Below are positions 9,512-9,975 of a stretch of 64,000 bases of DNA, piece by piece. A program made the position numbers and the translations under genes. This stretch comes from Escherichia coli. Lineage in GTDB: Bacteria; Pseudomonadota; Gammaproteobacteria; Enterobacterales; Enterobacteriaceae. The stretch's first letter is position 1. Every line of letters starts with the position of its first letter. The notes beneath the pieces were generated by a model that saw only the letters and a list, made by a program, of their open reading frames with translations, had not been told where the DNA came from and did not search any database. The stretch is from NCBI RefSeq assembly GCF_016026235.1, contig NZ_CP065613.1; one strand, written 5' to 3'.

Positions 9512-9775
9512 ATGATCGATCTGGAAAACCAGGAGCGGGAGATTATCAATTTAATGTTAAGCCAGCGTATTTCCTGGCTAGCCGCCGTGCGTATCAGGCA
9601 TAAATTATCGCTTGCTGAAGTAAGTAAAATGTTAGGTATCTCGATTAATTCTCTAAAATAGATCGAAAAGACGGAACGGCTTAGCTCAAACATCAAAAGC
9701 AAAATGGGAGAAATTTATGGTTGTCCACCAGAGTTGCTGATATGCCCTTCCTGGATGACGGCTGAACATAAATGA
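9512..9775 (+). pseudogene. HTH (XRE-like) ORF remnant, probably the truncated 5' end of yjjJ/hipH, with an in-frame amber codon at 9659-9661
   Basis: 49-codon ORF MIDLENQ...LSLAEVSKMLGISINSLK then TAG, same frame continues IEKTERLSS...GCPPELLICPSWMTAEHK to TGA; sits where yjjJ lies in K-12; no kinase domain follows. Confidence 0.4.
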
Positions 9776-9975
9776 ATAGATTCGTGAATAGATACTTGAA
9801 TGTATTTTATTTTTTATCCATATGAAAAATAATAGTAAATCTATAAATCAGTTGCTATTGATGAATAGATACTAAAAAGCCGGAGCAGTCCCCTGAGGAA
9901 TCCCCAGAAAACAAGACAGGCATAGTGAGATGTGATCTAATTGATTGTGCTAACAATTTCAAGGAGATCACCACT

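Follow-up and report, generated by a model that had tools for sequence, protein, structure and literature searches.

A cluster of 9-nt repeats beside an Escherichia coli Xre-type gene is probably the orphaned promoter–operator of hipH

What is the origin of a cluster of near-identical short repeats that lies in AT-rich DNA between a helix–turn–helix gene and an insertion sequence in E. coli? In the window (the whole stretch of DNA analysed, 64,000 nucleotides), the motif GAATAGAT / TGAATAGAT occurs exactly three times when both strands are searched; all three copies are on the plus strand and are confined to 98 nt, and the G+C content around the repeats is 26–29%. The repetition described in the original prediction is thus real, with exact copies starting at 9773, 9785, and 9862; that prediction had given positions of about 9771, 9785, and 9870, of which the first two are right, whereas 9870 is the end rather than the start of the third copy. 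Read on the minus strand, the copies are site 1 (9773–9781, ATCTATTCA), site 2 (9785–9793, GTATCTATTCA), and a distal site (9862–9870, GTATCTATTCA). A degenerate fourth copy, site 3 (9797–9805; plus strand TGAATGTAT, minus strand ATACATTCA), joins sites 1 and 2 in a tandem array with a 12-nt period (9773–9805; TGAATAGATTCG / TGAATAGATACT / TGAATGTATTTT), so that two of the tandem 9-mers are exact and one is degenerate. The distal copy stands alone, 65 nt from site 3 (9797) measured start to start, and has 12 nt, TGAATAGATACT, in common with copy 2.

The 8-mer count alone is weak evidence, because shuffles of the whole window contained 1.33 copies on average and 13 of 100 shuffles contained three or more. 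In first-order Markov simulations of a 116-nt stretch, three copies of any 9-mer arose in 86 of 20,000 runs. Clustering of the motif, unlike its raw count in the window, is therefore significant. We also built a weight matrix on 44 sites upstream of hipH genes from other genera and applied it to both strands of the window (128 kb). Sites 1, 2, and distal scored 19.8, 20.3, and 20.6 bits, respectively, and the next best site scored 13.9 bits. Together with the K-12 homology and the cross-genus conservation of architecture described below, these scores lead us to reject the earlier suggestion that the repeats are simply low-complexity DNA.

The gene directly adjoining the repeats had been taken for a remnant of yjjJ (hipH). 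It is a separate 87-aa gene that follows lplA (8464–9480, plus strand), occupies 9512–9775 on the plus strand in the place of hipH, and ends within the repeats, the plus-strand TGA in site 1 being its natural stop codon. Pfam assigns the 87-aa protein to HTH_3 (Xre/Cro type). The gene is intact in Nissle 1917 and is a pseudogene in the window, where a nonsense codon (CAG to TAG) lies at 9659–9661. It has the same direction as lplA, whereas K-12 hipH lies on the opposite strand and converges on lplA. Comparison of the frame with hipH and HipH by blastn, blastp, and tblastn gave nothing significant. The label of a yjjJ remnant is wrong, because the gene is on the strand opposite to hipH and has no detectable nucleotide or protein similarity to it. 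hipH is absent from the window. All that is left of it is a relic of its ATG (9768–9770, minus strand; CAT on the plus strand), where homology with the K-12 hipH allele stops and beyond which the antisense strand of the Xre gene begins; no start of a HipH-family kinase follows the array. The window copy is therefore a relic and not a working member of the family of arrays described here.

Comparison with the K-12 yjjJ region, as the original prediction had proposed, reveals the same four copies at identical 12-12-65 nt spacing. Reverse-complemented, the K-12 deoD–hipH intergenic region reads CAT TAA TGAATAGATTCG TGAATAGATACT TGAATAGATTTA, 56 nt, TGAATAGATACT AAAAAGCCGGAG. Its three tandem ATCTATTCA copies stop 3 nt short of the hipH ATG; its distal copy, which comes immediately after the deoD terminator, precedes the outermost tandem copy by 65 nt. 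Site 1, the tandem copy closest to the former hipH start codon, is homologous to positions 2758–2766 of the K-12 locus (L004), and at the position of site 3 both K-12 and CFSAN029787 carry the exact motif. The window is homologous to nt 1–169 of the K-12 intergenic region (alignment A2). Divergence between K-12 and the Xre alleles is concentrated in the 56-nt spacer between site 3 and the distal site (9806–9861, minus strand), which has the same length in K-12 and a diverged sequence and which harbours the hipH core promoter in hipH-bearing genomes; the motifs are identical in alignment A2.

Among 5,426 complete E. coli genomes, 1,347 (~25%) carry hipH, and in 4,055 (~75%) the position is filled by the 87-aa protein, annotated as ‘helix-turn-helix domain-containing’. 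Approximately 3,870 hipH-less genomes match the K-12 intergenic region over nt 1–169 only, through the ATG, at ~80–83% identity, and the two allele classes are only ~80% identical over their common intergenic DNA. Each Xre-allele genome gave a single match, which argues at that sensitivity against a second hipH copy elsewhere. The order deoD–hipH–lplA is found in E. albertii, a Klebsiella sp., Citrobacter freundii, Salmonella enterica, Kosakonia, Pluralibacter, Cedecea, and one further lineage; in Erwinia and Pantoea, hipH is next to ytjB and serB, without lplA. Because the deoD–hipH–lplA synteny extends across genera, the hipH arrangement is ancestral. Homologues of the Xre protein occur only in Escherichia and Shigella, often in truncated form. 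Judged from these comparisons, the Xre allele is an Escherichia-specific replacement, one that took out exactly the hipH coding sequence. The lplA–deoD locus thus documents an old two-allele polymorphism in E. coli.

We gathered orthologous loci by a search for homologous proteins and then retrieved the contigs that encode them. The array was found in E. coli, E. albertii, Klebsiella sp., Citrobacter, Salmonella, Kosakonia, Pluralibacter, Cedecea, Erwinia, Pantoea, and one further lineage, a total of 11 genera. In these genera, the distal ATCTATTCA lies ~100 nt upstream of the hipH ATG (at -113 in Pantoea), and the tandem copies of 12-nt period leave a gap of 1–3 nt to the ATG (14 nt in Pantoea). 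Site 2 is invariant across all 11 hipH-bearing genera examined, always reading (G/A/T)TATCTATTCA; the outermost copy, which corresponds to site 3, is variable in other genera too (for example, ATCCATTCA in Salmonella). The distance from the distal site to site 3 is 65–66 nt in 11 of 11 genera, as it is in the window, and the spacer sequence is unalignable between genera. In Pantoea, the upstream neighbour is not deoD, and the sites are kept, shifted 11–12 nt further from the ATG. The motif therefore belongs to hipH and not to deoD.

At many hipH loci the array comes very close to the start codon. In L004–L014, L023, L041, L072, L087, L092, and L117, the last ATCTATTCA ends 0–3 nt before the hipH ATG, leaving no room for a Shine–Dalgarno sequence, and the motif's last A doubles as the A of the ATG in L041 and L087. 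This placement suggests that translation of hipH is leaderless or independent of a Shine–Dalgarno sequence, or else that occupancy of the operator also blocks access of the ribosome.

A metagenome scan for ATCTATTCA-N3-ATCTATTCA returned at least 120 loci, and at least 27 of them have, next to the array, an ORF whose N-terminal domain is of the HipH type. These ORFs mostly start 0–20 nt past the last copy (74–98 nt in L133 and L030) and have a HipA_C-like body wherever the contig is long enough. Among the metagenomic matches listed, HipH identity to K-12 extends down to ~34% and contig G+C content ranges from 43 to 67%; many of the listed HipH-type loci have a single distal copy 60–70 nt upstream. 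At least four further loci are E. coli Xre alleles. At least 89 of the at least 120 loci lack a HipH-type gene and represent, for the most part, coding repeats or microsatellite-like DNA, so the dimer pattern is not diagnostic by itself. The association of the pattern with hipH is nonetheless far above any base rate. In L053, L086, L091, L094, L115, and L121, at least three phased ATCTATTCA copies lie beside ORFs without a HipH-type winged helix, and these may be chance repeats, coding repeats, or sites for a HipH-like protein whose gene lies elsewhere in the genome.

The K-12 array coincides with a promoter that has been dissected by mutagenesis. Reg-Seq covered the yjjJ promoter from -115 to +45 around a predicted start at 4621716 (PMC7567609); the K-12 hipH ATG is at 4621769. 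On the Reg-Seq scale, the distal site occupies -48 to -40, site 3 +17 to +25, site 2 +29 to +37, and site 1 +41 to +49. The supplements of PMC7567609 place the RNA polymerase site with its -35 element at -18 to -6 and its -10 element at +9 to +22. This K-12 -10 element, GTTAATAAATCTAT, abuts site 3, the outer tandem copy, and the true start of the K-12 hipH transcript should therefore fall in site 3. The reported yjjJ architecture is ‘0 activators, 2 repressors’. One repressor site (-24 to +18), assigned to MarA, overlaps the RNA polymerase site; the second (+30 to +45) has no assigned factor and was called in heat-shock data only (PMC7567609). This second site matches site 2 and the opening nucleotides of site 1, where the end of the mutagenised stretch truncates it. 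The Reg-Seq data thus partially support a repressor that acts on the tandem copies. PMC7567609 named neither the repeats nor a binding protein nor the distal copy of the K-12 promoter. This promoter is homologous to the DNA of the window, where the gene is missing and the relic alone is left.

In the window, a -10-like TAAAAT (minus strand, 9809–9804) likewise abuts site 3; by eye, there is no convincing -35 element. Promoter and terminator scans recovered the deoD terminator; none of the K-12, Salmonella, and window regions yielded a consensus promoter, so placement of the promoter rests on Reg-Seq and on reading by eye. Inspection by eye of five metagenomic loci (L061, L024, L038, L063, and L105) places TTGACA or TTGATT directly before the first tandem copy and the -10 position inside the second. 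In these loci, the operator would therefore overlap the core promoter and give a transcript with almost no leader.

Which protein reads the repeats? The N-terminus of HipH is predicted to form an ArsR/MarR-like winged helix. Its Pfam match to MarR_2 is marginal (E 0.037, below threshold), and the helix–turn–helix stretch LG(I/V)SQ(P/A)TxSR is near-invariant at L22, S25, Q26, S30, and R31. The HipH helix–turn–helix ‘may function to bind DNA’ (PMC8262856) and is reported to be required for HipH toxicity and nucleoid localisation (PMC11452175). Our literature search found no described HipH operator or DNA target of this domain, and searching for the motif strings brought up nothing beyond unrelated primers and shRNAs. 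From its conserved recognition helix and its constant place next to the array, we infer that HipH itself is the protein that binds the 9-mers.

The repeats might instead be operators of a host factor other than HipH, such as MarA or a c-di-GMP-responsive regulator, and might then be occupied even in genomes without hipH; we regard this as rather unlikely, although it is the least improbable of the alternatives. Reg-Seq did assign MarA to one yjjJ repressor site, and the accessible text of PMC11452175, in which c-di-GMP controls hipH transcription via the promoter region, names no regulator for this response. Moreover, myc-tagged YjjJ produced no binding peaks when K-12 was examined by ChIP-exo (PMC8464067); the authors of that study blame the lack of a recognised helix–turn–helix, and low expression or the tag could also explain the result, which nevertheless counts against binding by HipH. 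Most E. coli Xre alleles also keep intact sites, sites 1, 2, and distal still being perfect in most of those sampled. The MarA-assigned stretch (-24 to +18), however, comprises the non-conserved spacer and the RNA polymerase site, not the 9-mers, and the motif tracks hipH from Enterobacterales to organisms of 56–67% G+C, in which the only common neighbour observed is HipH.

We therefore favour a reading in which the motif cluster is probably an orphaned hipH (yjjJ) promoter–operator, HipH is an autorepressor, and the window copy is most likely a non-functional relic. It agrees with one of the two options in the original prediction, that of residual operator-like repeats, since the repeats are homologous to the array directly upstream of K-12 hipH/yjjJ and are kept with hipH across genera. 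HipH is a HipA-family Ser/Thr kinase toxin with a DNA-binding domain of its own at the N-terminus. In the hipH-bearing layout, a distal ATCTATTCA is followed by the sigma-70 core promoter and then by two to five tandem ATCTATTCA copies of 12-nt period, an array that begins at the -10 element or transcription start and reaches to 0–20 nt from the ATG in most loci (up to ~100 nt in two). Each 9-mer would be bound by the winged helix of HipH; the tandem array would block initiation or early elongation, and the distal site may add cooperativity, for example by looping. The outcome would be negative autoregulation, as in other toxin–antitoxin loci. In the lineage of the window and in ~75% of E. coli, hipH has been swapped, from its ATG to the lplA stop codon, for an Xre-type gene on the opposite strand, leaving the operator array stranded between that gene and the deoD terminator.

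Sister alleles are consistent with a loss of function of the array once hipH is gone. The E. marmotae Xre allele has TGAATTGAT at site 2 and TAAATAGAT at the distal site, the Xre alleles of AVS0750 and N4220121 have TGAATAAAT at the distal site, and TUM13867 (L141) lacks exactly one 12-nt unit, that of site 2 (alignment A2, columns ~52–63). Lesions of these kinds, seen among ~10 Xre alleles, were not seen next to hipH. By manual count in alignment A2, the Xre alleles carry ~7 changes per 36 motif nt vs. ~7 per ~84 non-motif nt, so that, in this small sample of ~10 sequences, the motifs show no evidence of being under purifying selection. The window array has thus probably lost its function. 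The loss in TUM13867, in which the Xre gene is frameshifted too, is consistent with replication slippage in the tandem array. We left two loci from public collections out of the conservation analysis, both of them assembly or data artefacts: L017 (Logan SRR13921544) is the E. coli locus assembled in C-to-T converted form, apparently after bisulfite-type sequencing, and in L016 the 3' end of the Xre gene carries a scrambled duplication.

An improbable variant of this history is that the orphaned hipH promoter is still active and has been co-opted, firing antisense across the Xre gene into the 3' end of lplA. It would account for the fact that the Xre allele keeps the distal site, the spacer length, the -10-like TAAAAT, and even the ATG, and for the good conservation of the AT-rich spacer among Xre alleles. 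It fits poorly with the lack of a convincing -35 element and of any match in the promoter scan, and also with the lesions that sister alleles carry in the motifs and with the fact that the Xre gene of the window is itself a pseudogene. Still less credible is the notion that the neighbouring Xre/HTH_3 protein uses the repeats as its operators: they do directly adjoin a helix–turn–helix gene, but they lie downstream of it, and the motif does not track the gene, the repeats being present in K-12 and 10 other genera without the Xre gene, whereas the protein is confined to Escherichia/Shigella and often truncated. Chance recurrence in AT-rich, low-complexity DNA, or a hotspot of slippage or recombination that plays no regulatory role, can be dismissed almost entirely, because the non-significant 8-mer count and the one allele that lost a 12-nt unit are outweighed by matrix scores 6 bits over any other site in the window, by the retention of motif, spacing, and position beside hipH across genera and in metagenomes, and by an allele-swap breakpoint at the lplA stop codon that has no such motif.

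The orphaned hipH operator differs in design from those of related systems. In hipBA, four inverted repeats of TATCC-N8-GGATA overlap the promoter and are bound by HipB dimers, and negative autoregulation acts through the HipB helix–turn–helix (PMC8262856). Like hipBA, the hipH locus has several operator copies over ~100 bp, placed on or beside the promoter of a gene for a HipA-family kinase. Unlike the hipBA palindromes, the hipH sites are 9-nt direct repeats of 12-nt period plus one distal copy, and the presumed binder is an ArsR/MarR-type winged helix fused to the kinase rather than a separate Cro/Xre-type protein such as HipB. ArsR/SmtB and MarR repressors (the NolR–DNA complex 4omy, BigR, and CzrA) bind palindromes as dimers, whereas the HipH sites are head-to-tail repeats. 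A HipB-type operator was considered for the window and rejected: TATCC-N8-GGATA with up to one mismatch occurs once, at 3398, which is the level expected by chance, and not near 9770–9885. In its history, the window array resembles orphan regulatory sites after gene loss (a descriptive term, not a curated family), in that a cis element has outlasted a replaced cognate gene and, in sister alleles, bears point lesions or lacks one unit.

Within the window, an odd cluster of repeats is explained as the control region of a lost gene, and the label of its neighbour is corrected. Beyond the window, the array offers a concrete and testable cis element for hipH, a persistence-linked HipA-family kinase without an adjacent antitoxin gene, and a conserved hipH operator appears undescribed within the searchable literature. 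We are inclined to think that HipH-type kinases across Proteobacteria have one family-wide operator, made up of ATCTATTCA repeats of 12-nt period with a distal copy ~65 nt upstream and read by the winged helix of the kinase itself, and that the relic promoter may fire antisense. If so, the HipH helix–turn–helix would gain a specific sequence target, as opposed to the non-specific nucleoid or DNase role proposed elsewhere (in one study, the helix–turn–helix is proposed to serve DNase activity), and the transcriptional restraint of a toxin without an antitoxin gene would be explained. In ~75% of E. coli, an unrepressed relic promoter may then fire antisense into the Xre gene and lplA. A 9-nt motif that extends from E. 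coli to high-G+C proteobacteria also opens genome-wide searches for further targets.

The AT-rich spacer holds a few minor features. At 9814–9822, TTATCCATA has one mismatch to the DnaA-box consensus TTATCCACA, probably by chance. Two small ORFs lie in the spacer region, one of 17 aa on the plus strand and one of 26 aa on the minus strand after the relic ATG, and neither has a Shine–Dalgarno sequence or independent support. In a search of the intact Nissle locus against Rfam, the best match was CyaR at 21 bits (E 0.34), below its gathering score of 47.

On its other side, the distal site directly adjoins the U-tract of the deoD terminator. In insertion-free genomes, this terminator is a perfect hairpin with a 12-bp stem, bidirectional and common to the convergent deoD; in Nissle 1917 it reads AAGCCGGAGCAG-TCTC-CTGCTCCGGCTT. 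In the window, the left arm of the bidirectional deoD/Xre terminator (AAAAAGCCGGAGCAG, 9877–9893, after the distal motif) is separated from the right arm (11147–11155) by an insertion sequence in the loop, and deoD follows at 11187–11906 on the minus strand. The insertion had been described as IS10-like; in an identical RefSeq locus it is annotated as ISEc60 (IS4 family). It occupies 9894–11132 and is flanked by a 12-bp target-site duplication, GGAGCAGTCCCC (left copy 9882–9893, within the left hairpin arm; right copy 11133–11144). A nested IS1 (10222–10989) replaces 821 bp of its interior, and ~330 bp of its left end and ~140 bp of its right end remain. E. coli FDAARGOS_943 carries the same ISEc60 insertion without IS1, and CFSAN029787 carries ISEc60 at the same place in the opposite orientation.
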